A DNA stretch of 64,000 bases from a virus (IMGVR_UViG_3300020385_000660:832-64831); one strand, 5' to 3'. Positions 1,165-34,770 are shown, numbered from the stretch's first letter. Notes: generated by a model not told the origin, from the letters alone. Program-made: numbers and translations.

Positions 1165-1749
1165 TTACATTAGTTCCATATCATCAGACTCAAAAGCAGC
1201 AACTTTAGTCTTAAGACTAGTACTATCTGGCTCTAAGAATGTATGAACTTGATCGTTCATGTCATTAGTTAGAATAATAGTACTTTGTGTAAAGATATAG
1301 TCACCATTATGAGTGATATAGTCACCATCTTTACCACGACGTTTAGCTTGAGTTTCCCAATTATCTTGTTGATACTCAGTTGGTTCAGTACTCTCTGTAA
1401 TAAGAACACGCATTCTAGTATCTTGAATAACTGGATTAAGTACATTTAAGTCTAATATCTCTTGTTGCTTGCTATTTGTATACCAAGCCTGATCATTACC
1501 TAAGTTTATACTCATTAACTCTTCTGCATCAACTACTTCCACAGACATCCAACAACGTCTAGCACCTGATGTAAATCTATCATCTGATTTATTTAATAAT
1601 GCTAATACATTTACTCCTGTATTAGTTGCTTTGATGATTTCTGCAAATTCTAATTGAATTTTACCACCATTTACTTTGCGAGCATTTACTAATAAAGTGT
1701 CGCCTTTTTTAAGTGTATCTAATGATCCACTGTTGATTTGATTTGCCAT
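1165..1749 (-). CDS. conserved-looking phage protein, possibly single-stranded DNA-binding protein
   Basis: 194-aa beta-rich ORF with acidic C-tail (AAFESDDMELM), upstream of the DNA polymerase. The CDS is solid; the SSB function is inference only. Confidence 0.6.
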   Translation of the reverse strand: MANQINSGSLDTLKKGDTLLVNARKVNGGKIQLEFAEIIKATNTGVNVLALLNKSDDRFTSGARRCWMSVEVVDAEELMSINLGNDQAWYTNSKQQEILDLNVLNPVIQDTRMRVLITESTEPTEYQQDNWETQAKRRGKDGDYITHNGDYIFTQSTIILTNDMNDQVHTFLEPDSTSLKTKVAAFESDDMELM

Positions 1750-1774
1750 GTTTGTACATGATTTTAAATGTTTA

Positions 1775-1804
1775 TGCTAGTTTCGAAGGTGTACTAGCAA
1801 CCTT
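1775..1804 (-). promoter_or_regulatory. H-type pseudoknot in 5' leader of the 194-aa gene
   Basis: Minus strand AAGGT-TGCTAGT-AC-ACCTT-CGAA-ACTAGCA: S1 AAGG(T)/(A)CCTT, S2 TGCTAGT/ACTAGCA, then an AU-rich 25-nt spacer to the ATG. Confidence 0.55.
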
Positions 1805-1806
1805 TT

Positions 1807-1852
1807 TAGTGAAGCACATGAGAATCGAACTCATGTTTATACCATATGCTTC
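1807..1852 (-). ncRNA. miniature tRNA-like element (acceptor stem + T-arm, no anticodon arm)
   Basis: Minus strand GAAGCAT-ATGGTATAAAC-ATGAG-TTCGATT-CTCAT-GTGCTTC-A-CTA: 7-bp acceptor, 5-bp T-stem, canonical T-loop, discriminator A. Confidence 0.72.
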
Positions 1853-1853
1853 A

Positions 1854-2762
1854 GGTTTATAATACTCTGAGATTACAAGTATTATTGATGTGTCTTTGAT
1901 AGAATTATAACCCGCCAAGGTCTTTCTCTCTTTTATCCACACTCTTTTGAAGTGTATCACATCAGTGACGGTTAGTATAGTTAACCACTCTTATCGATAA
2001 TACCTACTCACACAATAATAAATCTATAATAGAGTAGCGAACCCTAAAACAAATGTTTCTTGTGCGAACACCTATACCTTGCGAGTATAAAATGCACTAC
2101 ATTCACCTAAGTGTGTAGTATTAGTCACCTTTCAGCACTATCGTCCACTGTCTTTTGCTTTTTTTTAAGTTGTTAGTTAATCAACTGCCAATTATTGGGG
2201 GCGTGCAGCGGAAATTGCTATCATCCTTTTGAGATGTAAATACAACACGAGCCCATATGATTTGTCAAATCACGATAAGTCAAGACATCCTTAAGTTTAA
2301 GGACACCTATATTATTAAACAATACCCATACATAGCCTGACGGACTAATTCTGAACTTGTTCTACAGATTATTCTTATTGGGATTACTCCCTCAACATTA
2401 GTTGGCACTAATGTCACACATTCACTCAGGCGATAGCCCTCTGTTTCAATGTGATATTCTGCTTGCGTAGATTGACCATAAATGGCAACACATCAAGAGT
2501 ATTTCTCCCCTTGATGTGTCTTTCACACATTGCTGTGCTTATCGGGCCACGCCCCATACTTTTAATAATTTCTCAGCTGCACGAAAAACATAAATAGATA
2601 AATTGGCTATGCACTAGCAAACTTATCTAATATTTTCCTATCAACTCTCGCCAGAGAACGCATGCTATTTCTCCTTTTTTTTATTCTATTTCTTTCTTAA
2701 CTCGCAAGCTAAGAAATACTCAATAGTGCAAAAGCCTTGCAGACGTCATACTGCAGCCCTCA
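1854..2762 (-). ncRNA. candidate large (~900 nt) highly structured non-coding RNA
   Basis: No credible long ORF. Dense hairpins with GCAA/GTAA tetraloops, and G-U pairs that work on the minus strand. Long-range helices 2567-2583/2202-2216, 2142-2150/1963-1970 and 2135-2142/1996-2003. Confidence 0.62.
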
Positions 2763-2804
2763 GAAGAGTAGCAGGAATCGAACCTGCACTAACCATTTAC
2801 TCTA
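2763..2804 (-). ncRNA. miniature tRNA-like element (acceptor stem + T-arm, no anticodon arm)
   Basis: Minus strand (T)AGAGTA-AATGGTTAGT-GCAGG-TTCGATT-CCTGC-TACTCT(T)-C: 6-bp acceptor plus terminal mismatch, 5-bp T-stem, canonical T-loop. Confidence 0.7.
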
Positions 2805-2937
2805 TTACAATTATATATCCTAATACATCGTTGACGTGATCACAATTTGCACATTCTGCAAGTGTATCATGACCAACGTGTTCAAGAGTATGACCTTTAT
2901 CGTGGCCACACTCTGAACAGTTTATTTTAGCTATCAT
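2797..2937 (-). CDS. small zinc-ribbon protein (46 aa)
   Basis: Manual translation MIAKINCSECGHDKGHTLEHVGHDTLAECANCDHVNDVLGYIIVIE*; two CxxC pairs; ATGA overlap with the upstream stop. Confidence 0.65.
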   Translation of the reverse strand: MIAKINCSECGHDKGHTLEHVGHDTLAECANCDHVNDVLGYIIVIE

Positions 2938-3140
2938 TTCTTATTACGTGTAAGTGTTGAAATGATTTTATCTAATTTAGCTTTCTCTTTCTTTGCACCA
3001 TTTGGTTGATTGATTTGTAATGCTTTGCGTATTTGTACATAAGCATCTAATCCATCTTTGTTGATGAAAGAGTCACGAGCATCTTGCCTGTCTTTGGCAA
3101 GAGCTCGTCTTATATCTTTTTTGAATTTACTATGTGCCAT
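2934..3140 (-). CDS. small basic hypothetical protein
   Basis: 68-aa ORF tightly packed between its neighbours. Confidence 0.65.
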   Translation of the reverse strand: MAHSKFKKDIRRALAKDRQDARDSFINKDGLDAYVQIRKALQINQPNGAKKEKAKLDKIISTLTRNKK

Positions 3141-3142
3141 GA

Positions 3143-3454: not shown

Positions 3455-3486
3455 TTTGTTAAGGGTTTTAATTAATAAATAAAAAT

Positions 3487-3700: not shown

Positions 3701-3716
3701 TTGGGAATAAATAAAA

Positions 3717-4106
3717 TCAAACGCTCTTTAATTGAGCGCCTGATTTCTTGATTAGTGTAAGAAAGTTTACAAACTCTCTTGCATTCATTTCTCCCGGAAG
3801 AGTTATGACCATTTCTATAGGTGCCACAACTTTCTCTTGTCGTGGTTCTATAGTTTCACAAACTTCAGTATCAAACTTTGGTTTGCGAGTGCTATTAGCA
3901 ATACTAGAATAAGCTTTACGCCAATACTTATTGATAATTCTAACACCTTTTGTATTTACATACGATGGCATTGTATAACGTTTAGGCAAATCCTTAATAC
4001 TTGTTGGGATTTTACCTTTGAAATGAACTCTTTCTGATTGTAACATGTTTACAATTTCCTTTTGGATAAGAGCTTCAGATATTTTACGAGAAGTTGTCTG
4101 TGTCAT
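3717..4106 (-). CDS. hypothetical protein
   Basis: 129-aa basic ORF on the same strand as its neighbours. Confidence 0.7.
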   Translation of the reverse strand: MTQTTSRKISEALIQKEIVNMLQSERVHFKGKIPTSIKDLPKRYTMPSYVNTKGVRIINKYWRKAYSSIANSTRKPKFDTEVCETIEPRQEKVVAPIEMVITLPGEMNAREFVNFLTLIKKSGAQLKSV

Positions 4107-4157
4107 AATGGTTAATGATTAAGATAGATTGAATTTTTATGTTAGTTTGTATAAAAT

Positions 4158-4231: not shown

Positions 4232-4325
4232 TGCAAGGGCTAATCTCTGTGATAACCGCTTGTGCTATAATATCTAATTAGATACTTATGGTTGATGGCC
4301 AAAATATGCTAAAATATGGTGATAA

Positions 4326-19155: not shown

Positions 19156-22100
19156 ATGGCTGCAAAAAATTGGATCTTATCCAAGCCTGTTACAGGTAAG
19201 GTTATAGAATTACGATCTGGAAGCGAGGTTCTAGTTGTAAATGAGGTATATAATTTTTCTTTACCTACTCTCAAAGGAGTATTAATTAATCAAAAAGATT
19301 ATAGACATGCAGCACTAGATGGTACTGTAACTACATACCAGTTTGAAAAATTTGCTGCAATTTTACCTAAGTTAGCTTTTAAAGTAAAAGCAGTTCTTGG
19401 AGTTGATAAATATATTATTGAATATTTATCTGACGATAGACTTTTAAATTTACCACCTACAACTATTCCGTTAAGTTATTTTACTAGAGGTGAAGTTACA
19501 TATTTTGATGAAGATAGTCAAAAAGAAGTAACTTACATGATACCAACAAGACTTTATGAAGTACCAAGTCTTGTAGGAATTTTAGATGAAAGGTGTTTAA
19601 ATTATACACCTCTTAGTCAGACAGATACAGGGTTTACAGGAGAGTGTATTCTTAATCCGGATACATTTATAGATGCATGTACTGATGGAAGAGCTTGGAA
19701 TAGCTTAAAAACTTCTAATCAAAAGAGTAGCCTTGAAGTTTATGAAGCCTCTTGTAAATATGACTATACCGGGTTTGAAAGCGAACAAGCTTTACTAAGA
19801 GATCCTTCTGTTAATGCAGCCGCTAGAAACGGATTCAATTATATTGATATAGTTTATGGAGAAATAAGCTACGGCGTTTATCAATTAGGTCTTGGAATTT
19901 CACCATATTTAACAGGAGTTACCGGAAGCTATTGGGATCTATCTTATGATCCTGCTGTAGGTTTTGATGCTACTGATGGGTATGATGACGCGACTATGCC
20001 TACAGTAACACTTGCTCCAGGTACTCATGTTATTGCTGTGCAAGTTGACGCTGCAGGTGGTACAAGTTTTATAGACTCTGTAACAATAATTGTTTCACCA
20101 AATCTGAGTGGTTGTACTGATCCTAATGCTTCTAATTATAATGTTAATGCAACTGTTGATGACGGCAGCTGTATAGCTATGCTTAAAGGGTGTATGGATG
20201 ACGGAACATCTTTTAGTAATACTTATTACACAGGAGGTTTTCCTGTAGTTCAAAGTGTTGTTCCAGCAATACCTGGGCAAGCAGCTTCAAATTATAATTC
20301 TGCGGTAACTCAACATTCCCCTCAAATGTGTACATATAAAATTTGTACTGATGCTGGGGCAAATAATTACAAAAATCCTGACGATATAGTTAATACTGAT
20401 CCTTCTGATGGTACCACTTTTCCTTTAAATCAAACTGTTCAAGTAGATCCGACAGGACCTTGTACATATGAAGGGCAAGTTAATGGTTGTACGGATCCAG
20501 GAATTTCAAATGCTTCATTCTATAATCCAGGAAATATATACAATACATTTACAGTTGCAACTACCACAGGATCTACTGCGGTAGGAGGTAATGTAACTAT
20601 GGATCCTGATAATTCTCATTGGAATTTTAATCCACATGCAAATACTCAAAGTGGGAGATGTATACCAAAATTTATAGGGTGTTTAGATCCTTTAGCTTCT
20701 AACTATGTAACTCCTACAGGTAATCCAGATATAGATGTAAACTGGCATATACCTTCAATGTGTGAATATAGTGCTTGTTCAGATTCAAGTGCAGATAATC
20801 AACATCATCTTGATGGTGGCGCTACTGCTACAGATATTACTGTTGCAGGAGTTGATGATTGGGGATACAAAGCAGATGGAAGTAGTTGGAGTGAAACAGA
20901 ATATTGGATAGCTGAAGATTTAGGAACAAATACTACTTTAACTACTAGTAGTGCTCAATATAATGAAGACAATACATTATGTACTTTTGATGTAGGATTA
21001 GACGATATTTGCGGCGCAGGCTCTCCTCAAATACTTGAAGATGCTGTATCTCAAGCTCTTCAATCTAATCAAATTGGTTATAATAATACAGCTGTTGTGG
21101 TAGGTACTTATGCAGGGCAATTAGATCCAAGTACAGGTAATGCTTGTTTAAGCCAACTAACTGCAACACAGTCGGCAACAGTTGCTGGTATTTCTTATCA
21201 ACAAGTTACTCAAGAAAAAGTTTTTTGCCAAGTTATTAGTGCTAGTAACCCTGTTTTATATTTAACAAATCCAGAAATTAATGGTACAATCGTTTGGAAC
21301 TATACTGGAAGTACAGGAGGAGGAGCAGATATAAATATAACTAATATTTCTGATACTGATGCTTCAAATGTATCTAACGCTTTAACTGCGGCTAATTATA
21401 ACAATAGTTTAAGTCCAACAGCATATTACTATTTTAGAGTTATAAGCGCTGAAGATGATCCTGTTAATGGATTAACGTTATCACGAGATTTTGGAACTAA
21501 TCCTATTATAGCTTTATTTGATGATGCTAATATTACAAAAGTAGGATACCAACAAGGATCTTATTACTATGTTCCTGGCGGAGCAGTTAGTAATTTCCAA
21601 GCAGGAGATTCAAATATTGATATTCCAATAGGGTTTGCTGTAGGTACAGATTCAGATGGTAATATATTAAGTTCTACACAAAGTGGTGCAGGAGGCGGCG
21701 GTAATAATTGTAGTCATGCGACTATAGATAATGGTACGGCTGCTGCAGAACCAATGTATACAATATACAGGGTAGAGGTAGCTAATATGTGCGCATATAC
21801 TGCTTTAAATTTTGTAATTGATGCAGATTTATCAAATGTGCCAGATGAAATTACAATTAATAACACACCAGTTTTTGAAGGTTCATCAGTAGGATGTACA
21901 GACCCAACTGCAACAAATTATAATTCATCAGCAACTTCGCAAGATTTGGCAGCTAATTATATGTTTGGGCCAGGCCTTCCATACACATGGCCAATGGCAT
22001 TATCTGATGGGTATTGTTATATAGAAGGATGTGTAGACGAGTATTACACAGCAGCAGATCCGTCAAATAATTTAATAGTAAGTAGCAGTCTTATATCGGG

Positions 22101-25100
22101 CACAGATATACCATTACAAGTAGGTATTTATATGCCAGATTTAGGTGGTTACATATATAGAATTTACAACGGAGAAGTATGGATTGTTTCTATAGTAGAT
22201 CTTGGTAATAGCGCTGAGTACACTTATGATGGCGCACTAGGTGCAGTAGCAGCTTATGACGGGGGAGGATTTAATGACTGGGAGTTACCTGACGCTGAAA
22301 ACTTAGTTGCCATATATAACAATGTAAGTAGTCCAACTAGTCGTGTAGATATTATTATAGATCCTGATGAATATTGGAGCAGTACTCTTCATTCAGAAGG
22401 TTATGCGCATACGTATAATTTTGCATCCGGTCCAACTTTAACTACTCCTAGAATAGTTTCATATGAAACTCAAGTAAGAGCAGTTAGAAGTGTTCCATTA
22501 TCTGAAGTTATTGATATTACTACTTACAATGATAATTGTGGTAGCGGAATTAATCAGTATGGTTGTACAGATCCGGCGGCATCAAATTATGTTGCAGGCG
22601 CTACTGCAAGTCCAATAGTAGGAGATATTTCTTCTAATTGTACATATGGATTTCATATAGAAGATTGGACTGAAGGAACTAATAATTACAACGATCAAAT
22701 AATTGCTTTAGGATATACAGATACAGTAGATGAGGATGGTACAGTAATTAGTACAGCATCTGAAAATTTTGCAAATGGGCAACTTAGCTATTCTGAGCAA
22801 GTAGGATATGAGCCATACGGAACATTTATAATTCATTATAGCAGTGTTCATGCGTGGAACCACCCTACAAAACAAGGGGTTATCCTTCCTTCGGAGCCTA
22901 CTTGCTTGTCAGATAGGTTAGTACCATTTATTCCTATACAAGTGTCAAATGGAACTCCATCATCAGTAACTGCTGACCCAAATTTAAATTTTGGTTATAA
23001 TCAAGATGGTGGTTTTTATACTAATAGAGTGCAAGTAATTGGTAAAAAAGATTCTAATACAGATACTATTAATTACACTTTGTATGCTACTAATCCAGAA
23101 TTAGATTCTCAGTATTTTTATCAACTACAATCAGGATCTCATTTAGCTTCAAATGAATCTACATATTTATTAGGAAATTCTACTAGTAGTATACTTGGTG
23201 CTATAACTTCAGAAAGCGCTCATTCACTAGCTGAACAATTCGCAAGTGCGGGATATGTTAGTAGTGATAATGGAGGATTTACAAGAAAATCTAACCATGC
23301 GTATTATTTTAGATTTGATAAAAATTTATCTTATTCTATAAATCCTAACACTGGGTTAGATTGGACTCCTTCAGAAATGCTTAATGATCTTTTTGGAAAT
23401 ACAAATGTTTTTATAAAAGATATGCTCGGCGATGCTTATTGGCCAGCTTTAAATTTTCATAATCTAAACAGCTATAACGTTAATTCACTTGACCCTCAAT
23501 CTAATTTATATTATAGCGATGATGCTGATTATCAGCATCTATCATTTGGAAATTTTTTAAGTTCTAGGTACGATGAGCCTACAACTGGCAATGAATTAAT
23601 TACTGATTATAATTTTCCAGATAATAATGGTGGAGGAGAATGGACTGTAGTAGGTGCGACTGCGGTAGGACCAATTACTTTTGTTGATTCTGGAGGCGGA
23701 GATTATGTAGCAAGACGCACAAGTACTGGAAATGCAATAACAGGGTTACAACAACAAATAGCTGTAACTCCAGGTAAAAAATACAGCATAACTTATAAGA
23801 AAAAAGTAAATATAGCTGGCACAGATACATCTTATTTTGATTATGCTAAAACGTATGTTGAGATAGTACCTGATGGCACTAATTATGGGGAAGCAATCGA
23901 ATACGCTGCTAATCAATATTTTACTGATGGTACAGAACAAACTGTTACAGATACTTTTACTTATGTAGGATCAGCAACTTCTATTTATGTTGTTTTATAT
24001 CTCTCAGGTCCTTGGGAAGGAGACATTACTGAGTTTAGCATTAAACAAGTAGACGAGTATCCAGATGGGTATATTACGCAAGAGTTTAGAGATAACACTG
24101 TTGCATGTAATGATGCAAAAACTCCTGGATATTATCTATACCAATTAATTCCTGATGGTAGTCTTGATACATATGATTTTTCTCCATATTTTGAATATCA
24201 AGATGAGGTATCAGGATGTATGGATGATACAGCATTAAATTATAATTCTGATGCTACACTAACTCAAGGTAACTACAATGATTGTTTATATTATTTAACT
24301 TCTTGTGATGGTACTAATCCAGAAATTACAGTAACTCCTCATGACGATACAGCTGTAAATGGAGTTGGATGTGCTCAAGCTTATGATGTAACTGTAAATG
24401 CGTGTCCAAGTGTAATATCTAACGCTCAAATATCTATAGTGTTAGGTCAGTTACAAACTAATAACACTAATTCTGATATAGCTTTACCTAACGGTGATAT
24501 ACTTCCAGCTTTACAATCAGTGTATGTGCCTGTACTACAAATTGTAGATATTGAACCTTGTATTGAAGGTATTCAACAAGATGATTCTCCAGCAGTAATA
24601 GCGTCATTTACATATGATCCTACTTCTGAAGATTACCAATTTGCTAGTATATCTAACGAAGCTAATATTTCATATATTACTGGAGGAGTAGGTATAGCGC
24701 CTAATTCAGATATAACATACTCGTCTCAATTCCAAATTCAATACGATGAGTATTATACAGATCCTGATGGTAATATTTTATTTGGAGGACCTAATGAGAT
24801 AAGCTATGAGTTTAGTGACTCTACATTATATAATGATAACTCTTTAATATCACCTATTATTGATGGGTGTACTACTGTGGAGTCATTTAATTATAATCCT
24901 AATGCTACTTGTGACGATGGTAGTTGTTTAGAGTATGTTTACGGATGTACAAATCCATTAGCATTTAATTACAATTCGGATGCAAATACAAATGACGGAA
25001 CTTGTATTCCTTATGTATACGGGTGTACAGACACTGAAGCTACTAACTATACGTATAATGTAAATGAAGTTGCAGATAATACAAATTTAATTGGTACATC

Positions 25101-28100
25101 TACTTACGGGGATATTTCATCTGTATCAAGCACCTTTGGTCCTTTTCCAAATGCTAGTACAAATTACGATATTAATACTTCAGTACCTGAAGTTTGTTTT
25201 TATTGTCCAAACCTTTTAGGGGCTGATGGATCTACAAACCAAATAAATGTTGAGTATGCATCAGATGACACTCTTCCAAGTTTTTCAAATTTAAGATTTA
25301 CTTGGAATTCAAATATAAATTCAGGTGACTCTTCTTTATCAGCTGCTACTGATGTTACTGTGCAAGTAACTATAATTTACGAAGAGTTTTCTTTAACTAC
25401 AGCTGTAGAAGATGGTAATACTATATATACAATTAATGAGTACGATATTGTAAGTTCAGTAACTGATACTGAAATGTATTCTTATGATCAGTTGGAAGAC
25501 GGTATTATATTAGAATATTTTAAAATGCCTACCACTAGTACTGCTACTAGAATTAAGTCATTAGAGTTTACAGCATACTACAATCCAGGACCAAATGGAG
25601 TAAACAGATGTTTACAAAAAATTAATCATGTTGTAGATCATAGTTTATATCCAAACTTTTTACTAGGGTGTACAGATTCAACAGCATTTAATTATTATGA
25701 TAATAGTGATTATACATCAAGCGGTTTAACTACTGGGATATTTGTTACAGATATAGATGGTAATACAACTGAAATAAATGTTATTACTCCTCCAAATTCT
25801 GATAACGGTCTTATATGTCAACCTGTAGTTGAAGGATGTATTGACGCTACAGCTGATAACTATAATGCGGCAGCAAATACAGATAATGGATCTTGTCTAT
25901 ATTCAGGTTGTACTAATAATACTGCATCTAATTATAACCCTCAAGCAAATGTTGACGATGGTTCATGTATTATTTACGGTTGTACACAATCATGGGGAGT
26001 AAACTATAATGCTGATGCAACAGATGATGATGGTTCATGTAAGACATATGGTTGTACAGATGCTACTGCTTATAATACACATTGGTGTTTAGATGCTAGT
26101 GACCCATGTTTTTCAAATAATTCTTATACATCTAGTGCTATACATAGTACTACATGTTACTACCAAGGATGTATGGATGCTGGTAACGGAGTTAATCAGC
26201 CGGTAATTAATTTAGCTAATGAGTTTGCTTCTGAAAGTACTAGTACATACACTTTAAACGATGTTTTAGCAAATGTTCCTGCTGGAATTACTCACAACAT
26301 GAATAATCAAATTGCTGAAGTAGTATCAGCTCCAGGTAATCCAGGAGAGCAAGCAACTAATTATAGTGCAAGTAATACTATTTCTGGTACTTGTTATTAT
26401 GAGGGGTGTACAGATCCAAACGCGTCTAATTACGAACCTAACGCAACTACTAATGATGGTACTTGTGTGTATGAAGCATGTATAGATGAAACTGCATCTA
26501 ATTATGGGGAAGGTGTTACAGTAACTGGTAATGCTTCAGAGCAAACAAATATTCAAAATACATGTTTAGGTCCAAATTTATTAGCTCCTGCAAATTCATT
26601 AAACTTTAATTATTGGCATGCAGGTATTAATGCTAATATAGTGCAAGTTAATCCTGTAAGAATAGAAACTAATCCTTCTTATGTATCAGGAAATCCAGCA
26701 GCTAGAGTAGTATTAAGCCCATTTAATCCTCAAATAACATTGTCTGGTGGATCTTTAACTACTCCATCTACATATAGTATACTTGAATATGATGAAACTG
26801 CGGGTACTAATAGTGCTGGAGTTGCTACAACAATATTATATCCAGAAGTTGCAGCTAACAGTGATGTTTTAGTTTATAATTATAACGTACAATTATCTGT
26901 ACAAAGTGTAGCAAGTGGAACTACATTAACAGTAAGAATAAAAGAATATAAAAATGTTACTGATATTAATGACCTTAATGTTTCAAATTGGGGATCTTCT
27001 TCAACTTTACCATACACTGAAACAGGAGTTACAACTTTAATATATGATAGTGTTTCAAATTTGTACATAGCTACAGGGTGGACGCCGCATTATCAAACGG
27101 AATTAGTTGTATTAGAAATGTCTAACTTAACATCGGGGGACAGTGTAAAAATAAATAATATAACATTAGCTAGAGAAACATGTTCAGATGTAGTACTAAC
27201 ACAGGAGTGGTTTAACGGTTTAGTTGAATCAGGGCTTAATGTGTCGTTAGATCTTGATAATGCAGAAGCACTTATACCTGTAGGAGGTCTTCAAAATAAT
27301 GATCCTTATTTTATTACAATAAGAAAATATTTTAATGAAGCATTAGCATATACTACAAGTTGGGGAGGAGAATTTAATTTAAATCCTAATAATGATTTAA
27401 TGCCTGGTCATACAGGATCTACTTATTTCCCGGATGCAAGTAATGAAACTTGGAGAAGAACTTGGTTTGTAGGAGATAATATGCTTAGATTTGTTAAAAT
27501 AACTCCGGAATATGTAGCTAAATTTAAAGTTAGTGAATGGCCTTACAATCCGATGAATATCGCAGATCATCTGATTCCTGCTCCATTTAATCTAGATGAA
27601 CCTAGAGTTGTTTTATCTCAATCATCTGTGACTTATGGTACTGATCAGTTATACAGATTAGATTTTAAAGCTAGACTGACTCCTGGAAATGCCACTAGTG
27701 AAAAAAAATCTATTGGAGTCTCAGATTATGTGGGAACAGAAACTAATCAAGGGGGAAGTACTTGGTATTACTCTACAGAAGTTAATCATCTTTATTCGGA
27801 AAGTGGAGTATATAATGCTATTCCAAACAATCAAAATAATTATATATTAGAATCAGATTGGGTTGAGTATACTGTATATTGGTATCCTACATCTAATTCA
27901 AACGGTATAGCTTTATATAATTATGGTCAAAATGATAATTATGAATTTGAAGTTAAACATATACGAATTGAAAGAGTTGTTCCTTCGGTATATAATACAA
28001 CAACTGATACATGTTACATCTTTGGATGTGGAGCTTCTGGATTATATCCTGTAGGCCACGCTAATGAAGGTCAGCCTTGGGCAACTAATTATAGTGCTGA

Positions 28101-31100
28101 TGTAAATTCTGAAATTGGTATTGAGGTAGCGCCAGGAACAGTAGGGCCTAACAACGAATTACCTTGTGAACTTGCAGGATGTATGACTCCAGGAATGGAT
28201 AATTACAATGAATTTGCAACATATGATGACGGATCTTGTTATAAATATGGATGTATGGATAGCGGACTTATTGAGGCTGATTATTCTCCATACCCTGCTC
28301 CAATAACTTTAGAAGAATATTTAGCATTAAATCCAGACAATGGTGCTCTTGATTTTACTCCAGGTTTCCCTGCAGATAATTACGATGCTTTAGCAACTAT
28401 TAATCAAGTAAGTGATATTGACTCTTCTAACCCTTGCTTATATACAGGATGTACTGATTCATCTTCATTTAATTATAGTTCACTTTATACAACAACAGAT
28501 AATAGCACCTGTATAGATATAGTATCAGGATGTTCTGATAGATTTGCTGCTAATTATAATCCAAATGTAAATACTGAAAGTGGTACTTGCTGTCTTCAAT
28601 TGCTAGGTACGGATGCTGATAACGATGGAGTATTTGAATTACAAAATAATATATACGGTCACTCTATTACTTCTTATACGTATTCGGGAGTATCAGCTGC
28701 AGCTAAACCAATTTTATTTGAATTAGTAAATTATGATTGTGTGGGAGATGCAGATGTAGATTTACAATTTAAATCTGGTTATAACGTGTTACCAGATAAT
28801 TTATTAAACAGTGATGGTACACCTAAAGTTGGTAATATTACTATAAATGCATATCCTGAATCAGGAGGCACAATAGATGATACTGATACTACATTCCCTA
28901 CAATAACTAAAACTTGGTCTCAATTACAATCAGGGCCTGTTACAGTTGATATTTATAACTCAGCTCCAACTGTATTAGCAGTTTATATAAGAGTGCAATT
29001 TACTTACAGTAATTATTCTCAATCTAGTGAAGATGGAGAAAATGGAACAAGTTGTACATATTCAGTAGATTTACATTTAGATTCTGATTGCGCTTCTGTG
29101 TCAGGATGTACAGATGATGGATGGAATACTACAGCTATTGATGGGTTTAACGCTCTTAATTTAGGATTCCCGCAACAAGATTTTAATCCAAATGTAAATT
29201 TACATGTTTCTAGTGATTGTGATGGAGCGCATGTTTTAGGTTGTATGGATGAGCACTGGGCTATACCTGCAAATCAGCACGTAGGTGAAGGAGCTTCTAC
29301 AACGCAAACATCTTGGGATAATTTTAATTATAATATTGCTGCCACTGGTAATGATATTCAAGGAAATGCATATGACGGATATAGCGCAACTCCTACTATT
29401 AATATGTATGATGACACCTATCTTGGTAATAGTACTGGTTCATTATACGGTACAAGTTTGGGGGCATATCACCCAATATATGCTGATTTAAATTTACTTG
29501 ATGATACAGATCCTGAAAGTGCTCAACACTCAGGGACTCCGTCGCCTAATACATTTGAAGGTTCAGTATATGGATGTTTCCCTAAAGTATATGGATGTAC
29601 AAATAATGCTAAATTTAATTGGAATAACTGGTATCACGCAGGAAATATAAATCCTACAACAGGAACTAATTATACTGGAACTGAATTTGGTGCATTAAAC
29701 TTTGGTACTCAGTATCATCAAGATCCTACTATAAATCCTAATACTAATCTTGCTTGGACGTTTGACGAACTAGTAAGAAATGAGCACTATTTATATAATG
29801 TAAATACTGCAGGTACTACTCAAGGTAATGCTACTGACACATGTTTCAATGTAGTTGGAGGATGTACTGATTCAACTGCTGCAAACTTTGTTACTCCATC
29901 GGGAGGATCAGCAACTACAACAGAAGGAGCATTAGCTGCTTCAGAAGGTTTAGGAAGTAACGTAAACACAGAAAATAACTCATGTTGTTATGATGCTAGT
30001 GATTTACCAGCTGATGTTGATTATCCTTTCAGTGTAACTCCAGCATGTAGTACATTACCTGTAGTTTATGACACTAATATTTATAATACTTTAGACTTTA
30101 CTTCAGGATGGTCAAATCTAACAAGTGGTACAGCTGTTGCTATTCCTCACGCTACTTCTGTTATTTTTGCAACAACTTCAGGTTTTCCTAATGTATACGT
30201 ATTAGACGCTTTAGCAAATTTAGATGTTGGAAAAAGATATGAAATAACTATAACAGGTCTGGTTTCATCTGGGCAAGTTACTGCAGCTATATATTGTGCA
30301 AATGAAGCAAAAGTAGCTGCTTTAAGTGGAGATCCTATTGCAGACTTTGTTGCTGATTTAACAACTCCTAATAATGGTACTGGAGTAGGAGGACAAAATG
30401 GGAATTCCTTTTATGAGACTGTAACAAGTACACAGACATTTATTACGCCAACAATTCAAACTGGATTTAAAGATATAATATTACTATTATATGGTACTGT
30501 TAATTCTGCTACATTTGCAATAACTAATATAGATATAAAAGAATGGAAACATCCTAGTCATGGTGTAACAACCAATATTCTTTTAGATAGTTGGCCAGAA
30601 TTAGTAAATGGTGTAATTGATTATTCTCAAATAACATCTATAACTGCAGAAACTCAAAATGCAAGTAGTGGTGCAATTTATAATTCAGGTTCTAAAACAC
30701 TAGCTGATTTCCAGAATGGTGTTGATTTATACACTTATATATATAATGATGCAGCTTCAAATGCTGAAACTTCAGGTACTTACAATTCTACTTATAATAT
30801 AGGAGGAACTAATAACTCTGATGGAAGTTTTGTAGATCCTAATCTAGCTACAAAAATTGTATATACAATTAATTATAATGCTGAAAATGGTTCTGCATGT
30901 AGCTCAAATGCTATTGTAGTTACAAAAAATATTGGTGGAACTGGTATTGCTGCAAGTGATACTAGATGTAGCACTGTTTATGGTTGTATAGATAATACGT
31001 ATTTACAATTTTATTTAAATAACAATGCTGGAAATGCGTCAGCTATTAATAACTTTACTTGGGGTGATTCACATGGAGCCACTATAGATAATGGATCTTG

Positions 31101-34100
31101 TACTACTGTTGTAGCATCTGGATGTGTAAATGCAAATTATGTAGAAGCATACCCAAATAAACAAGAAGCTTTAACGCCTAATTGGGCAAGTGAAGATACA
31201 GAGTTTACAGAATTTACTAATACTCAATTATTTACTCCTGAAGGAAATCCTGTATACGGATTCTTAGGAACAATTGGTACAAGTATTCCTGCGGGACCTA
31301 GTCAAACTTATCCTAATGTTGTAACAAATATTTCCAATGTAGGTTTATGTGAAGATGAAATTATCTATGGATGTGTATTAGATCATTTTGCTGAATATTG
31401 GGGAGCTCAATCTACACCTTCAAATTCAAATACGATTTTTGGAATAAATAGTAATCAAGGTTCATTTATAAGTGAAGCTAATAATATTAAATCTTGGGCT
31501 AACGTCTCTTTAGAGAATGACCCTTCAAATGCATTATCTGGTGTATCCGAAAATCACGCTCTATTATTAGGATGTGGGAATTTAACTACTCCTAAAATTG
31601 GTTGTGTAGAGCCTGTACAATATGTAGATTATACATACCCAGGAGCTACTAGTATTACAACTAATATACAAACATCTTGGTGTAACTATGACCCTTTACA
31701 CAATATAAAGGCACCGGCTAATAGTAATAACGATTGTCAAGGTTTAATAGGATGTGTAGATCCTGCCTATATAGAATTTGATGGTATTTCTACAACTTCG
31801 CCTGCTGCTAATATTACTAATGTTGGAGATGCATTTAGTTGTAATCATTTAGGAAGCTATTTGAACAATTATATAACCAACTATACCGGTACTCTTTTCT
31901 CTAGTCCACATTACCCTGAACATGCTGTATCACTTAGTATTAATCCTTGTGGAATTGAATCAATTCCTGGTTGTACAGATTCCGATTATGTTGAATATAA
32001 TCCAGATGCAAATGTTTACGAGCAAGGAGCATGTCAAACTATTATTGTACAAGGGTGTACAGATACTAATTATTGTGAATACTACACAGGGGCTCAGAAT
32101 ATACCAGGAATTGGAGTAATACATCCTACAGTTTCAATTGACGGAGCTTGTCAGACATCAATAGGATGTACTAATCCTTTGTATTTAGAAGCTTACAATG
32201 AGAACTATGACGCTACTAATTTAGAATTAACTGGAGATGCAGTTTATGGAACTCCAACAAATGGGTGTACTAGTTTTACTCCTTCGGGAATATCCTTAGC
32301 AACATTTTTAAGCTCAAATCCAAATAATACTGTCCAACAATATCAAAATGCGGGATGTACTACTCCAATTGTAGTGGGGTGTACAGATAACACTAAAGAT
32401 GAGAACGGAAATAATTTGTATTTAAATTACAATCCAAATGCAAATTTAGCATGTTATGATGGAGAAACTTATAATTCATGTTGTTTTGAAGCTATACCTG
32501 GATGTACAGATGGTTCTATAAATGAACTTACAGGTAATTTAAATTATGTAAACTTTAATTCAGCAGCTACTTTAGATGATGGTTCTTGTATTCCAGCCAT
32601 TGAAGGATGTACTCAAAGTGGTCAATTTGGATTTGATGTAGGAGCTAATTTAGATAATGGATCTTGTTTGCCAGTTATTACAGGATGTTTAAATGAAACT
32701 TTCCCATATAATGGAACAGATACTCCATCAGCTAATCAAGTTGCAGGATATGATCCTACAGATCCTAATACAATTACATATCCTAATACACATCTAGATT
32801 CTGAATGTTTCCCTATTATCGAAGGTTGTACTGATCCTACAGCAATGAATTATAATAATATAGGTCCAGTGCCTACAGATCCTATTCCTTTAGATACTAG
32901 TGCTAATGCAAACTTTATAAATGTAAATACAGATAATAATACTTGTCTTTACATTTTAGATGGTTGTATGGATCCTTGTGCAAATAACTATGATCCAAAT
33001 GCTACAGTATCTGGCACTTGCTTCTATACTGCAGGATGTACAGATTCTCAAGCTTACAACTATGAACCTGATACAAATCAAAACGATGGTTCTTGTTTGT
33101 ACTGTGAAGATTGGTCTGCTACAACGGTAGGTTCTCCGTATATACAAGTTACTGATAATACATCATTTATAAACGGTGTAAGTTCTGAAGACGGAGCTAT
33201 ATCAATAACTCCAATATCTACTAGTGGTGTAACTACAGGTTATAGTGTACGTTGGTATTACTCTACACCAGACAATAGTGTGCAAGGTCAGCCATTACCA
33301 CAATATAACGATGCTATTTCTCTTACAGGATTAGCTCCTGGATATTATAGTTTTGAATTGTACAGTTCTTCTAGTCCTAATTGTGCTCCTGGCTCATCTA
33401 CACAAGGTTACCCTGCAGTACAAAGTCATGTTCATTCAGGTGTAAATTGTAGTTTTGATGAAGGAGAAGAGCAATCATATGTTGTTTCACCGGGCCCACA
33501 CTTGCAATTTGTACTTGTGCTCACTGACGGAGTTGGGTGTACAGATAGTGCAGGAATAGAATATAGTCACAATTCCTTGGGCGAGCTTAATCTTACAGCA
33601 GAAGGAGGAACTTTTAATACGTATACTCCTGGCGCTTCTACAACTACTACGCTATCTGCTAGTAATTATGATTCTTTTGCAAATGTAGATGATGGTAATT
33701 GTGTGTATCCTGGATGTACTGATCCTTCGGCATTAAACTACAGCGCATCTGCTACGGTAGAAAGCGGAACTTGTATTTACATTCAAGGATGTCAAGATCC
33801 ATTAGCTTGTAATTATAATCCTGAAGCTACTGTTTATGGACCATGTTCATACAAAGCTATATACAGAGACTGTAATGGTGTTTGTTTAAGTGGTGAAGTT
33901 ACTGATAGTAATCCTCTTGGAGAGTCTTTACAATTCCCAGGATTATGTCCTGAACAAGTATTATCAGATTGTATAGATACAGAAGCTATTAACTTCCAGC
34001 CGGTAGTAAATCAAACAAGAGTTATACCAGGAGGATCTTCTCAACGTATGAGAATTGTTACAGCTCCTGTAGCTATAGAAGATGATGGATCTTGTGTATA

Positions 34101-34770
34101 TGAAAATCCTTGTATACCTACAGATATTTATGATATAATTGATGCTTTAGCAGATACAGTTAATGATCAAGGTAGAACAGTTTTAACTAATCTTCGTACA
34201 GGAATGTTAGATCCTGCAGATGTTGCTACTATGTGGACATTAATGTTAGTAGATTATGTAGTTAACAAAGTAGGATTTGACGGATTCTATAATTGTGCAG
34301 GATATAATTATGAGGGTCAAGTTACCTATACTGAAGGAGTTGATAGCACAAATTATTTTGATAAATTCCTTACATTTGCATTTAAGCAAGGGGATGAGCA
34401 TTTTGCAGGAGTACAAAGTAATAGATCTAGAGCACTTGTTTCTTCTGCTAGCAATATGACTAAACAAGCTTCTAGAAACGCACTTGGATTAAATGATGTT
34501 GTAACTTCAAATTGCAACTGTCAAATAATCTGCACAGATGGTAGAGAGTGGATGGCAAATTATGCGTGTGAAAGTAATTGTGATGAGTGCTGTTCAAATG
34601 CTAATGTGGAGCTTTGTGGAGGTTCTAAAAATACTACAAATATTCTTAGCAATACTTCTAACACAAGTTCTACTACAATTAATGTTACATCTGCTAGTAG
34701 TAATGTGTCCTACAGCACAAACGGACAATCAACGTCTATATCTAGAAATAACAGAAATAGAAATTATTAA
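19156..34770 (+). CDS. giant (5204 aa) fibre/adhesin-like protein with Cys-bracketed repeats
   Basis: Dozens of GC(T/M)DxxAxNYxxxAxxDDGSC repeats interspersed with beta-rich domains; no signal peptide; lies in the tail module. Confidence 0.75.
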   Translation: MAAKNWILSKPVTGKVIELRSGSEVLVVNEVYNFSLPTLKGVLINQKDYRHAALDGTVTTYQFEKFAAILPKLAFKVKAVLGVDKYIIEYLSDDRLLNLPPTTIPLSYFTRGEVTYFDEDSQKEVTYMIPTRLYEVPSLVGILDERCLNYTPLSQTDTGFTGECILNPDTFIDACTDGRAWNSLKTSNQKSSLEVYEASCKYDYTGFESEQALLRDPSVNAAARNGFNYIDIVYGEISYGVYQLGLGISPYLTGVTGSYWDLSYDPAVGFDATDGYDDATMPTVTLAPGTHVIAVQVDAAGGTSFIDSVTIIVSPNLSGCTDPNASNYNVNATVDDGSCIAMLKGCMDDGTSFSNTYYTGGFPVVQSVVPAIPGQAASNYNSAVTQHSPQMCTYKICTDAGANNYKNPDDIVNTDPSDGTTFPLNQTVQVDPTGPCTYEGQVNGCTDPGISNASFYNPGNIYNTFTVATTTGSTAVGGNVTMDPDNSHWNFNPHANTQSGRCIPKFIGCLDPLASNYVTPTGNPDIDVNWHIPSMCEYSACSDSSADNQHHLDGGATATDITVAGVDDWGYKADGSSWSETEYWIAEDLGTNTTLTTSSAQYNEDNTLCTFDVGLDDICGAGSPQILEDAVSQALQSNQIGYNNTAVVVGTYAGQLDPSTGNACLSQLTATQSATVAGISYQQVTQEKVFCQVISASNPVLYLTNPEINGTIVWNYTGSTGGGADINITNISDTDASNVSNALTAANYNNSLSPTAYYYFRVISAEDDPVNGLTLSRDFGTNPIIALFDDANITKVGYQQGSYYYVPGGAVSNFQAGDSNIDIPIGFAVGTDSDGNILSSTQSGAGGGGNNCSHATIDNGTAAAEPMYTIYRVEVANMCAYTALNFVIDADLSNVPDEITINNTPVFEGSSVGCTDPTATNYNSSATSQDLAANYMFGPGLPYTWPMALSDGYCYIEGCVDEYYTAADPSNNLIVSSSLISGTDIPLQVGIYMPDLGGYIYRIYNGEVWIVSIVDLGNSAEYTYDGALGAVAAYDGGGFNDWELPDAENLVAIYNNVSSPTSRVDIIIDPDEYWSSTLHSEGYAHTYNFASGPTLTTPRIVSYETQVRAVRSVPLSEVIDITTYNDNCGSGINQYGCTDPAASNYVAGATASPIVGDISSNCTYGFHIEDWTEGTNNYNDQIIALGYTDTVDEDGTVISTASENFANGQLSYSEQVGYEPYGTFIIHYSSVHAWNHPTKQGVILPSEPTCLSDRLVPFIPIQVSNGTPSSVTADPNLNFGYNQDGGFYTNRVQVIGKKDSNTDTINYTLYATNPELDSQYFYQLQSGSHLASNESTYLLGNSTSSILGAITSESAHSLAEQFASAGYVSSDNGGFTRKSNHAYYFRFDKNLSYSINPNTGLDWTPSEMLNDLFGNTNVFIKDMLGDAYWPALNFHNLNSYNVNSLDPQSNLYYSDDADYQHLSFGNFLSSRYDEPTTGNELITDYNFPDNNGGGEWTVVGATAVGPITFVDSGGGDYVARRTSTGNAITGLQQQIAVTPGKKYSITYKKKVNIAGTDTSYFDYAKTYVEIVPDGTNYGEAIEYAANQYFTDGTEQTVTDTFTYVGSATSIYVVLYLSGPWEGDITEFSIKQVDEYPDGYITQEFRDNTVACNDAKTPGYYLYQLIPDGSLDTYDFSPYFEYQDEVSGCMDDTALNYNSDATLTQGNYNDCLYYLTSCDGTNPEITVTPHDDTAVNGVGCAQAYDVTVNACPSVISNAQISIVLGQLQTNNTNSDIALPNGDILPALQSVYVPVLQIVDIEPCIEGIQQDDSPAVIASFTYDPTSEDYQFASISNEANISYITGGVGIAPNSDITYSSQFQIQYDEYYTDPDGNILFGGPNEISYEFSDSTLYNDNSLISPIIDGCTTVESFNYNPNATCDDGSCLEYVYGCTNPLAFNYNSDANTNDGTCIPYVYGCTDTEATNYTYNVNEVADNTNLIGTSTYGDISSVSSTFGPFPNASTNYDINTSVPEVCFYCPNLLGADGSTNQINVEYASDDTLPSFSNLRFTWNSNINSGDSSLSAATDVTVQVTIIYEEFSLTTAVEDGNTIYTINEYDIVSSVTDTEMYSYDQLEDGIILEYFKMPTTSTATRIKSLEFTAYYNPGPNGVNRCLQKINHVVDHSLYPNFLLGCTDSTAFNYYDNSDYTSSGLTTGIFVTDIDGNTTEINVITPPNSDNGLICQPVVEGCIDATADNYNAAANTDNGSCLYSGCTNNTASNYNPQANVDDGSCIIYGCTQSWGVNYNADATDDDGSCKTYGCTDATAYNTHWCLDASDPCFSNNSYTSSAIHSTTCYYQGCMDAGNGVNQPVINLANEFASESTSTYTLNDVLANVPAGITHNMNNQIAEVVSAPGNPGEQATNYSASNTISGTCYYEGCTDPNASNYEPNATTNDGTCVYEACIDETASNYGEGVTVTGNASEQTNIQNTCLGPNLLAPANSLNFNYWHAGINANIVQVNPVRIETNPSYVSGNPAARVVLSPFNPQITLSGGSLTTPSTYSILEYDETAGTNSAGVATTILYPEVAANSDVLVYNYNVQLSVQSVASGTTLTVRIKEYKNVTDINDLNVSNWGSSSTLPYTETGVTTLIYDSVSNLYIATGWTPHYQTELVVLEMSNLTSGDSVKINNITLARETCSDVVLTQEWFNGLVESGLNVSLDLDNAEALIPVGGLQNNDPYFITIRKYFNEALAYTTSWGGEFNLNPNNDLMPGHTGSTYFPDASNETWRRTWFVGDNMLRFVKITPEYVAKFKVSEWPYNPMNIADHLIPAPFNLDEPRVVLSQSSVTYGTDQLYRLDFKARLTPGNATSEKKSIGVSDYVGTETNQGGSTWYYSTEVNHLYSESGVYNAIPNNQNNYILESDWVEYTVYWYPTSNSNGIALYNYGQNDNYEFEVKHIRIERVVPSVYNTTTDTCYIFGCGASGLYPVGHANEGQPWATNYSADVNSEIGIEVAPGTVGPNNELPCELAGCMTPGMDNYNEFATYDDGSCYKYGCMDSGLIEADYSPYPAPITLEEYLALNPDNGALDFTPGFPADNYDALATINQVSDIDSSNPCLYTGCTDSSSFNYSSLYTTTDNSTCIDIVSGCSDRFAANYNPNVNTESGTCCLQLLGTDADNDGVFELQNNIYGHSITSYTYSGVSAAAKPILFELVNYDCVGDADVDLQFKSGYNVLPDNLLNSDGTPKVGNITINAYPESGGTIDDTDTTFPTITKTWSQLQSGPVTVDIYNSAPTVLAVYIRVQFTYSNYSQSSEDGENGTSCTYSVDLHLDSDCASVSGCTDDGWNTTAIDGFNALNLGFPQQDFNPNVNLHVSSDCDGAHVLGCMDEHWAIPANQHVGEGASTTQTSWDNFNYNIAATGNDIQGNAYDGYSATPTINMYDDTYLGNSTGSLYGTSLGAYHPIYADLNLLDDTDPESAQHSGTPSPNTFEGSVYGCFPKVYGCTNNAKFNWNNWYHAGNINPTTGTNYTGTEFGALNFGTQYHQDPTINPNTNLAWTFDELVRNEHYLYNVNTAGTTQGNATDTCFNVVGGCTDSTAANFVTPSGGSATTTEGALAASEGLGSNVNTENNSCCYDASDLPADVDYPFSVTPACSTLPVVYDTNIYNTLDFTSGWSNLTSGTAVAIPHATSVIFATTSGFPNVYVLDALANLDVGKRYEITITGLVSSGQVTAAIYCANEAKVAALSGDPIADFVADLTTPNNGTGVGGQNGNSFYETVTSTQTFITPTIQTGFKDIILLLYGTVNSATFAITNIDIKEWKHPSHGVTTNILLDSWPELVNGVIDYSQITSITAETQNASSGAIYNSGSKTLADFQNGVDLYTYIYNDAASNAETSGTYNSTYNIGGTNNSDGSFVDPNLATKIVYTINYNAENGSACSSNAIVVTKNIGGTGIAASDTRCSTVYGCIDNTYLQFYLNNNAGNASAINNFTWGDSHGATIDNGSCTTVVASGCVNANYVEAYPNKQEALTPNWASEDTEFTEFTNTQLFTPEGNPVYGFLGTIGTSIPAGPSQTYPNVVTNISNVGLCEDEIIYGCVLDHFAEYWGAQSTPSNSNTIFGINSNQGSFISEANNIKSWANVSLENDPSNALSGVSENHALLLGCGNLTTPKIGCVEPVQYVDYTYPGATSITTNIQTSWCNYDPLHNIKAPANSNNDCQGLIGCVDPAYIEFDGISTTSPAANITNVGDAFSCNHLGSYLNNYITNYTGTLFSSPHYPEHAVSLSINPCGIESIPGCTDSDYVEYNPDANVYEQGACQTIIVQGCTDTNYCEYYTGAQNIPGIGVIHPTVSIDGACQTSIGCTNPLYLEAYNENYDATNLELTGDAVYGTPTNGCTSFTPSGISLATFLSSNPNNTVQQYQNAGCTTPIVVGCTDNTKDENGNNLYLNYNPNANLACYDGETYNSCCFEAIPGCTDGSINELTGNLNYVNFNSAATLDDGSCIPAIEGCTQSGQFGFDVGANLDNGSCLPVITGCLNETFPYNGTDTPSANQVAGYDPTDPNTITYPNTHLDSECFPIIEGCTDPTAMNYNNIGPVPTDPIPLDTSANANFINVNTDNNTCLYILDGCMDPCANNYDPNATVSGTCFYTAGCTDSQAYNYEPDTNQNDGSCLYCEDWSATTVGSPYIQVTDNTSFINGVSSEDGAISITPISTSGVTTGYSVRWYYSTPDNSVQGQPLPQYNDAISLTGLAPGYYSFELYSSSSPNCAPGSSTQGYPAVQSHVHSGVNCSFDEGEEQSYVVSPGPHLQFVLVLTDGVGCTDSAGIEYSHNSLGELNLTAEGGTFNTYTPGASTTTTLSASNYDSFANVDDGNCVYPGCTDPSALNYSASATVESGTCIYIQGCQDPLACNYNPEATVYGPCSYKAIYRDCNGVCLSGEVTDSNPLGESLQFPGLCPEQVLSDCIDTEAINFQPVVNQTRVIPGGSSQRMRIVTAPVAIEDDGSCVYENPCIPTDIYDIIDALADTVNDQGRTVLTNLRTGMLDPADVATMWTLMLVDYVVNKVGFDGFYNCAGYNYEGQVTYTEGVDSTNYFDKFLTFAFKQGDEHFAGVQSNRSRALVSSASNMTKQASRNALGLNDVVTSNCNCQIICTDGREWMANYACESNCDECCSNANVELCGGSKNTTNILSNTSNTSSTTINVTSASSNVSYSTNGQSTSISRNNRNRNY

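Follow-up and report, generated by a model that had tools for sequence, protein, structure and literature searches.

A GOLLD RNA between two tRNA-like minihelices in a marine crAss-like phage

The locus

The subject of this analysis is a stretch of 64,000 nucleotides (nt) of viral DNA (IMGVR_UViG_3300020385_000660:832-64831, referred to below as the window) and, within it, the segment 1807-2804, whose minus strand carries a large structured RNA with a short tRNA-like element at either end. The segment had been singled out, on inspection of the sequence alone, as a candidate ~900-nt noncoding RNA, bracketed by tRNA mimics. It does lack any credible gene: the longest open reading frame (ORF) that overlaps it specifies 62 amino acids (aa) from a GTG start, and all others specify 48 aa or fewer. 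Read leftward, the segment comprises an upstream minihelix, U (2804..2763), a leader (2762..2556), the core of an RNA of the GOLLD family (2555..1861) and a downstream minihelix, D (1852..1810). The outer edges of this cassette (1810..2804, minus strand) are also the edges of its similarity to other phages.

The virus record from which the window comes has 64,831 nt and a completeness rating of 70%. Three of its proteins (terminase, portal and major head) have matches among the PHROGs families and the major head (major capsid) protein is ~31% identical to that of crAss-like phages of Bacteroides and Flavobacterium, so that, as judged by these protein similarities, the genome is that of a crAss-like phage. 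The sources of the metatranscriptomes in which it is found mark the phage as marine. Related loci are referred to by their G and L record labels where they need to be told apart.

A GOLLD RNA and its fold

Searching the 64 kb with Rfam models gave a single gathering-level match, on which both repeats of the search agreed: GOLLD (RF02032) at 2255..1864 on the minus strand, with 223.4 bits against a gathering cut-off of 150 (E 6.2e-62). The alignment runs over model positions 1-416 of 416 with a mean posterior of 0.93, one optional hairpin being shortened. By this match the gene-free stretch is a member of a known giant phage RNA family. The sequence-only reading, which had proposed a large structured minus-strand RNA and named GOLLD and ROOL as its nearest known relatives, was thus well directed, but the novelty that it had entertained for the RNA class is gone. 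The same model scores 197-222 bits in four syntenic relatives and exceeds its cut-off in 10 of 11 scanned metagenome loci; a blastn comparison of the region with 50,697 GenBank phage records yielded no match.

The matched part (1864..2255, minus strand) is the conserved 3' domain and takes in the full model: a first hairpin, an A-rich variable linker and the 3' domain proper. Before it lies a 5' domain of ~300 nt (2256..2555, minus strand), which starts with GGGGCGTGGCCCGATA and marks the point at which homology among relatives begins. Matches of this 5' domain in nhmmer searches are confined to the window's own clade, and it contributes many compensatory pairs to an RNAalifold consensus of 13 distinct sequences. 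Beside the gathering-level score, the locus has a complete 3' domain, a less conserved 5' domain of several hundred nt (as given by the 300-nt clade-only region 2555..2256 with its covarying helices) and a phage context, all as is usual for GOLLD; as to tRNA neighbours, there are no true tRNAs, but there are the two flanking tRNA-like minihelices. It is scarcely credible that the RNA represents a new class resembling GOLLD just in part. Its 5' domain has no detectable sequence similarity beyond its own clade and Rfam models the 3' half alone, but the match is full-length and 73 bits above a curated cut-off, a result that refutes the proposal, and a variable 5' region is itself described as a property of GOLLD (Kretsch preprint). 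By homology with the GOLLD RNAs of solved structure, that of the window is expected to fold and to assemble on its own into a multimer, a cage made of RNA only.

The conserved RNA is shorter than the ~900 nt first proposed. Similarity among relatives spans 2573/2555 to 1859, which defines a core of ~695 nt (2555..1861) consisting of the 300-nt 5' domain and the 3' domain. The 207 nt between U and this core (2762..2556, minus strand) are not conserved: they are shared, in part, by G003 alone (nhmmer, 46.7 bits). This leader holds an AAGGAG motif and an 18-codon ORF (ATG at 2663..2661, TAG at 2609..2607), which was considered as a gene and set aside, its counterpart in G003 stopping after 5 codons; on this comparison it is probably noncoding.

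That the whole folds better than shuffled sequence was borne out: the 910 nt of 2762..1853 (minus strand) fold with -258.4 kcal/mol as compared with -219.7 +/- 7.1 for dinucleotide shuffles (z = -5.47), none of the 20 shuffles being as good. The RNAalifold consensus of 13 distinct full cores contains 143 pairs, 64 of them with compensatory changes. The particular helices that had been traced by eye did not do as well. A three-way junction (GCCC/GGGC with GATAAG/CTTATC) is paired in 63.8% of its cells in the 13 distinct homologues, shows no compensatory change and is reached by 327 of 500 shuffles. The helix thought to close a domain at 2583-2202 is no feature of the family: its 5' strand lies outside the conserved core (which starts at 2555) and, among the aligned sequences, is seen in the window and G003 alone. 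Its 3' strand is part of the first hairpin of the Rfam model, which covaries (15 compensatory cells, with 0 of 500 shuffles reaching it). For the domain at 2150-1963 the idea of a long-range closure holds, since a nearby long-range helix of the Rfam model closes it, but the CAGTG/CACTG pairing to which the closure had been ascribed is absent from the Rfam and RNAalifold consensus alike.

The two minihelices

Both tRNA mimics, described at the outset as anticodon-less and on the same strand as the RNA, are found in their proposed places at its two ends (U at 2804..2763, D at 1852..1810). In each, an acceptor stem of 6-7 base pairs (bp) is stacked on a 5-bp T stem with a TTCGATT loop, and where a tRNA would have its D arm, anticodon arm and variable region there is a linker of 10-11 nt with ATGG in it. 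U (2763..2804, minus strand) has the acceptor stem AGAGTA/TACTCT (6 bp, or 7 with a T-T mismatch), a 10-nt linker and the T stem GCAGG/CCTGC; the TAA stop codon (2799..2797) of a 46-aa ORF lies inside its 5' acceptor strand. D (1810..1852, minus strand) has the acceptor stem GAAGCAT/GTGCTTC (7 bp), an 11-nt linker and the T stem ATGAG/CTCAT, to which a C-G pair can possibly be added; its discriminator is the A at 1810, followed by CTA. The minihelix is the minimum free energy structure in four of five elements folded. It is so for U, with -11.2 kcal/mol and a z of -2.44; for D the z is -3.67, and 0 of 200 shuffles are as stable.

A purpose-written scan for this architecture over both strands of the 64 kb returned U and D as its only two matches, and in 2.29 Mb of phage loci, most of them unrelated, it returned ~10 unrelated ones. 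ARAGORN found no tRNA gene in the window. The Rfam tRNA model (RF00005) gives U 19.7 bits (cut-off 29), in an alignment from which the D and anticodon arms are missing, and does not report the downstream element at E up to 10. The two elements are not members of the tRNA family and cannot decode.

Nine distinct elements of 41-43 nt were available for analysis of covariation. Pairing is found in 105 of their 108 stem cells, the TTCGATT loop is invariant, and double compensatory changes occur in 10 of the 12 base pairs. Because pairing is kept through compensatory changes, and the loop is kept unchanged, the minihelices are selected RNA structures, neither tRNAs nor products of chance. An acceptor/T-arm stack with a T loop, kept here by covariation, is also the structure by which t-elements and elements of the mascRNA type are recognised. 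The U region (2726-2803) is 96% identical in G003, and the U orthologue in L118 carries three compensatory base-pair changes. The identical 43 nt of D recur in G002, G003, G004, L243, L244, L245, L246 and L251/L259. A search for the exact D sequence in viral_contigs found three records, all of them bearing GOLLD, and a search in genome_contigs gave no match.

Placement of the elements at this and other GOLLD loci

D starts exactly 9 nt after the end of the core in the window and in G002, G004, L243, L245, L246, L250 and L261. The distance is 86 nt in G003 (which corresponds to L128) and L244, where a 77-nt hairpin-containing insert separates the 3' end of GOLLD from D. The U of the window lies ~207-209 nt upstream of the core with the non-conserved leader between them. 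L244, L246 and L250 have no such leader; in them, a U-type element is separated from the start of the core by just 6-8 nt.

Elements of other kinds are also seen beside GOLLD in this clade. A 12-bp hairpin (AATCAGGGGCT...AGCCTCTGATT) is conserved 8-100 nt upstream of the core in L127 (G002), L129 (G004), L243, L245 and L248, and may be an alternative end-forming or terminator-like element. In all five it abuts the 5' end of GOLLD at a place from which tRNA-like elements are missing. Other members have, beside GOLLD, longer and degenerate tRNA-like elements of 60-90 nt in which acceptor stem and T arm are well formed (L020, 5274-5352; L048; L249, 913-979; L247/L251; L126, 3530-3596 and 4458-4547). 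ARAGORN calls none of these; the one in L249 has a weak match to transfer-messenger RNA (tmRNA; 22.5 bits, with a cut-off of 47).

GOLLD loci of other clades were identified with nhmmer profiles among the loci that two pattern scans had supplied. The first scan, with a 14-mer, gave 116 stretches, and GOLLD was detectable in just 7 of 120 loci (the 116 together with L118-L121), the rest being chance matches; a gapped pattern again gave mostly chance matches, and the loci were therefore sorted by the profiles. In L217, L220, L198 and L218 a real tRNA-Met ends ~425-430 nt before the 3' domain and, because the 5' region of env-38 GOLLD is ~420 nt long (Kretsch preprint), we take tRNA-Met to abut the 5' end of GOLLD in these clades. 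A real tRNA-Leu or tRNA-Tyr lies 12-34 nt past the 3' end of GOLLD in L216 and L236, and L169 and L224 have a tRNA inside the GOLLD linker. In a further clade, a classical intrinsic terminator follows the 3' end. The minihelices thus occupy the slots that real tRNAs or terminators hold at other GOLLD loci.

Genes around the cassette

The small ORFs among which GOLLD sits are tightly packed and read leftward; after them come a 194-aa gene (1749..1165), an 85-aa gene and a DNA polymerase fragment. The 46-aa ORF whose stop codon lies in U (2937..2797, minus strand) adjoins the cassette upstream. A PHROGs search with six small neighbouring proteins gave no match. Promoter-like sites within 1800-3700, found by a scan for the sigma-70 type that does not reach other promoter types, are at chance level (10 found, 12.4 expected), and no terminator-like site was found in that interval. 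The space between U and the core was also inspected by eye for a promoter of Bacteroidota or sigma-70 type, and nothing convincing was seen.

On the minus strand, the sole terminator-like site in 1500-4400 is at 3747..3713, a 14-bp stem with a T run, located at the end of a 129-aa ORF (4106..3717). It may be the start boundary of the transcription unit that contains GOLLD. On the other side of the cassette, the 5' untranslated region of the 194-aa gene offers a possible H-type pseudoknot or operator at 1804..1775 (minus strand; AAGGT-TGCTAGT-AC-ACCTT-CGAA-ACTAGCA). The second stem of this candidate changes in a compensatory way (GCTGAT/ATCAGC in L118, GATGAT/ATCATC in L120, GTGAT/ATCAC in L121) while AAGGT/ACCTT is invariant; in L261 just the beginning of the downstream flank that holds it is seen (ACTAAAAAGGT). 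Elsewhere in the window the plus strand has three very long ORFs, at 19156..34770 (5204 aa), 45589..51579 (1996 aa) and 57208..63144 (1978 aa). In size, the first of these resembles the giant RNA polymerase proteins that are associated with the virions of crAss-like phages.

Presence, absence and exchange

The closest syntenic relative of the window, L118, has flanks that are 83-85% identical in nt sequence and a 194-aa protein that is 92% identical, but no GOLLD, either at this site or elsewhere in its 35-kb record. What it has at the site is a single well-paired minihelix whose 5' side matches U and whose 3' side matches the flank of D. Relative to L118, the window has leader, GOLLD and D inserted behind one orthologous minihelix. 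L118 also has, at 3591-3908, an extra ORF of ~105 aa to which the window has no counterpart; like the window's 46-aa ORF, it has its stop codon within a 5' acceptor strand, here that of the single minihelix.

In more distant syntenic phages (G001-G003) the nt identity of GOLLD is 89-93% while the neighbouring proteins are ~30-57% identical (tblastx); the GOLLD core of G004 is 72.6% identical to that of the window. Similarity to G003 (93-100%) covers 2803..2726, 2573..1859 and 1852..1806, stopping at the outer ends of U and D. A protein-based search for synteny found 4 loci, with GOLLD in none of them. Because GOLLD is more alike than the neighbouring proteins are, because the edges of similarity fall at U and D, and because D is identical in nine records, comparison of these sequences suggests that U, GOLLD and D form an exchangeable cassette among related phages. 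An origin of the 3' halves of U and D in a host tRNA or attachment site was looked for, with 0 exact matches in 185,579 prokaryote species genomes.

Two further relatives have something else upstream of their homologue of the 194-aa gene, a candidate self-cleaving ribozyme like twister-P1 (L120, 3626-3679; L119, 799-852). With 41.9 bits (E 4e-6 to 6e-8) it falls short of the cut-off of 67.2; it has the conserved core nucleotides and lacks one stem. It would be another RNA-cutting device, so far as can be predicted, near the site at which the window has GOLLD.

GOLLD in metatranscriptomes

Part of the stretch is contained in 20 listed public runs, 17 of which are recorded as RNA. Contigs of four runs were compared with the window: X1 and X3, from one marine study, and X5 and X6, from two others. 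The contigs of X1 and X3 are all at least 99% identical to the window. Depth of the GOLLD contig is 564.5 in X1 and 1079.4 in X3, which is 17-23 times that of the adjacent downstream contig (33.1 and 47.2); upstream contigs have depths of 12-22. This is good evidence that GOLLD is highly abundant in these two runs.

The GOLLD contigs of X1 and X3 both end at 1878, 14 nt inside the 3' boundary of the Rfam match, and 1808, a position 2 nt beyond the discriminator of D, is where the downstream contig of X3 ends. The parts free of contigs (1760/1809-1877 in X1 and X3, 2722-3114 in X3) are not counted as absence. The contigs of X5 and X6 cover part of GOLLD and leave the window's sequence at 1859; they thus come from relatives and not from the window phage, and their sequence past 1859 matches, by eye, the 77-nt insert of G003 and L244.

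How the ends of the RNA may be made

The interpretation that we favour, with somewhat better than even confidence, is that the GOLLD gene of this phage is part of a leftward operon of small genes and genes for replication, that the ends of its RNA are cut at the minihelices by the tRNA-maturation enzymes of the host, and that the unit is an exchangeable cassette. It is the position in the middle of a polycistronic transcript, together with the lack of any promoter or terminator that could be recognised as belonging to GOLLD, that suggests cutting at the minihelices, and punctuation by RNase P and RNase Z at U and D is plausible by analogy. U and D would retain just what these enzymes measure, the coaxial stack of acceptor stem and T arm with its T loop. 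A cut of the RNase Z type after U (~2763/2762) would leave the upstream mRNA with a tRNA-like cap and would begin the GOLLD precursor; RNase P, cutting 5' of D (1853/1852), would form the 3' end of GOLLD; and a second cut of the RNase Z type, after A1810, would free the 43-nt minihelix and the downstream mRNA. (The cuts and the enzymes are all matters that we infer.) RNase P is described as binding the stack of T stem-loop and acceptor stem and measuring from the elbow, the D loop being dispensable and the T loop needed (PMC4919913), and a minihelix is reported to be cleaved by bacterial RNase P (PMC6614837).

Punctuation of this kind gains indirect support from the compensatory changes of the minihelices, from the fixed 9-nt spacing of D and from the positional equivalence with tRNAs and terminators. 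It gains some also from the contig breaks near 1878 and 1808 with their large step in depth, although, as marks of RNA ends near the predicted cut sites, contig ends are a weak hint. To the proposition that GOLLD borrows RNase P and RNase Z for its excision from a polycistronic transcript, the two-arm minihelices being a selected remnant of its linkage to tRNAs, we would give slightly less than an even chance.

A number of observations weigh against cutting at the minihelices. The elements are not universal in the clade: among the 15 records with enough downstream sequence, the short D is found in 10, a 90-nt form in one (G001) and neither in four (L020, L040/L253, L048 and L248), and seven loci (G002, G004, L243, L245, L248, L253 and L040) have no upstream tRNA-like element. 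The sequence of D does not vary between loci with GOLLD cores of just 73% identity; an invariance that goes beyond what structure alone would call for hints at a sequence-specific role. No CCA is encoded. U can be at most a signal for cutting on its 3' side, because RNase P, by cutting on the 5' side, would deprive the 46-aa ORF of its stop codon, and U may be retained at the 3' end of the upstream mRNA as a cap. Some contig ends, moreover, lie away from the predicted sites. The 3' end at 1878 falls 25 nt inside the predicted 1853, the 5' end of the X3 contig at 2721 falls 41 nt inside the predicted 2762, and the GOLLD contig of X1 continues through U to 3077. The depths are those of assembled contigs, one figure for each, which cannot rank genes and to which reads of relatives may add, and X1 and X3 represent a single study.

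Might the minihelices be functionless tRNA-gene remnants in decay, with the ends of the RNA coming from an unrecognised promoter (of the Bacteroidota type, for example) and from trimming at the 3' end or other RNases? tRNA genes are the typical surroundings of GOLLD (Kretsch preprint; PMC5737381; PMC6582537), and a pseudo-tRNA inside GOLLD is reported in the last of these (PMC6582537). The degenerate forms of 60-90 nt in G001, L020/L048 and L247/L251 resemble a decay series, D is absent from 4 of 15 records, the 5' end of the X3 contig (2721) is not at U, and the promoter scan was blind to types other than sigma-70. We nevertheless consider decay unlikely: 10 of 12 stem pairs have been kept by way of double changes, D is identical in nine records despite the divergence of cores to 73% identity, its spacing to the core is fixed at 9 nt, and L118 retains a well-paired element despite having no GOLLD.

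A role of the minihelices as DNA, namely as sites of recombination or attachment through which the GOLLD cassette would be moved (integrases target the 3' halves of tRNA genes in this way), has in its favour the contrast between the empty site with one element (L118) and the filled site with two, the exact stop of G003 similarity at the outer ends of U and D, the 89-93% identity of GOLLD where neighbouring proteins are at 30-57%, and the invariant sequence of D. U and D differ, however, at most stem positions, each with its own pairing kept, which argues for selection at the level of RNA. The cassette contains no integrase or other ORF larger than 62 aa and, with both 3' halves absent from the 185,579 prokaryote species genomes, a host tRNA target is unlikely. 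Phages, besides, commonly have mosaic boundaries where functional modules begin and end, and we judge this explanation quite improbable. We hold out equally little hope for the suggestion that one or both minihelices stay on the mature RNA as a tRNA-like handle, be it a site of CCA addition, a protector of the 3' end or a tethered cargo of the cage. tRNAs are covalently embedded in the linkers of some GOLLD RNAs, and cages have been proposed to display or store them (Kretsch preprint and 2026 review). L169 and L224 have such a tRNA within the linker, and U, overlapping the stop codon of the upstream ORF, could cap the 3' end of that mRNA. But in both high-depth runs the GOLLD contig stops at 1878 without D, though the DNA is continuous, and D lies outside the conserved core, 86 nt away from it in G003 and L244.

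Should cutting at the minihelices by RNase P and RNase Z be correct, the long-noted linkage of GOLLD and ROOL with tRNAs would be a maturation mechanism and U-GOLLD-D an RNA module, complete in itself, that marine crAss-like phages exchange horizontally. It would also be a bacterial-virus counterpart of the formation of the MALAT1 3' end at mascRNA, and the invariance of D would then point to an additional, sequence-specific partner.

Comparison with known systems

GOLLD RNAs are among the largest and most elaborate noncoding RNAs of bacteria and phages; their cage has been solved recently, and their function and association with tRNAs are described as unexplained (Kretsch preprint, 2026 review and PMC5737381). 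Structures by cryo-electron microscopy exist for the env-38 GOLLD (833 nt, a 14-mer) and the Streptococcus agalactiae GOLLD (700 nt, a 12-mer), and the 5' region of the RNA is given as less conserved than the 3' region (Kretsch preprint; 2026 review). Like these solved RNAs, that of the window is phage-borne and abundant in RNA libraries, and it has a conserved 3' and a divergent 5' domain. With 695 nt, its core has nearly the size of the S. agalactiae RNA (700 nt; 2026 review); its 5' domain of ~300 nt is specific to the marine clade and differs from the ~420-nt 5' domain of env-38 (Kretsch preprint). It also differs from the solved GOLLD RNAs in being hosted by a crAss-like phage with no canonical tRNAs nearby, the cage having been seen for env-38 and S. 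agalactiae only. A literature search for GOLLD in crAss-like phages found none, its matches being swamped by unrelated plant papers, and we draw no claim from it. The locus adds a crAss-like marine phage lineage with a GOLLD that is abundant in environmental RNA libraries. The RNA itself belonging to a known family, it is the minihelix bracket and the cassette behaviour that are worth following, and the window and L118, with and without the cassette, offer a natural comparison for the question of what a phage has from GOLLD.

As in the tRNA arrays in which GOLLD and ROOL occur (a Lactobacillus prophage, Mycobacterium clusters, and marine env-38 downstream of tRNA-Met), the RNA of the window is flanked by tRNA-type elements on the same strand. 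Unlike the members of those arrays, its neighbours are reduced to acceptor/T-arm minihelices of 42-43 nt that cannot decode. Truncated tRNA-like flanks or processing signals were not found in the available portions of the GOLLD literature; Weinberg 2009, Morgado 2020 and the supplements lie outside that search, and a prior description is possible.

Nearer analogues of the proposed cutting are found outside the GOLLD family. MALAT1/mascRNA, MEN-beta, the t-elements of plant mitochondria and mitochondrial tRNA punctuation all involve ends of long noncoding RNAs or mRNAs that are made by RNase P and/or RNase Z at an adjacent tRNA-like structure without a part in decoding. These systems are eukaryotic or organellar, and mascRNA and the t-elements keep a cloverleaf-like fold, whereas the elements of the window are two-arm minihelices in a phage of bacteria, and it is there that cleavage is proposed. 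In having an acceptor stem on a T arm, with no anticodon arm, they are like the minihelix substrates of RNase P and the tRNA-like domain of tmRNA. The model substrates of RNase P, though, are artificial and usually end in 3' RCCA, whereas U and D are natural and end in A-CUA without CCA. As natural minimal flanking tRNAs, which would present the recognition module of RNase P and RNase Z and nothing else, the minihelices argue that the linkage of GOLLD to tRNAs concerns end formation.

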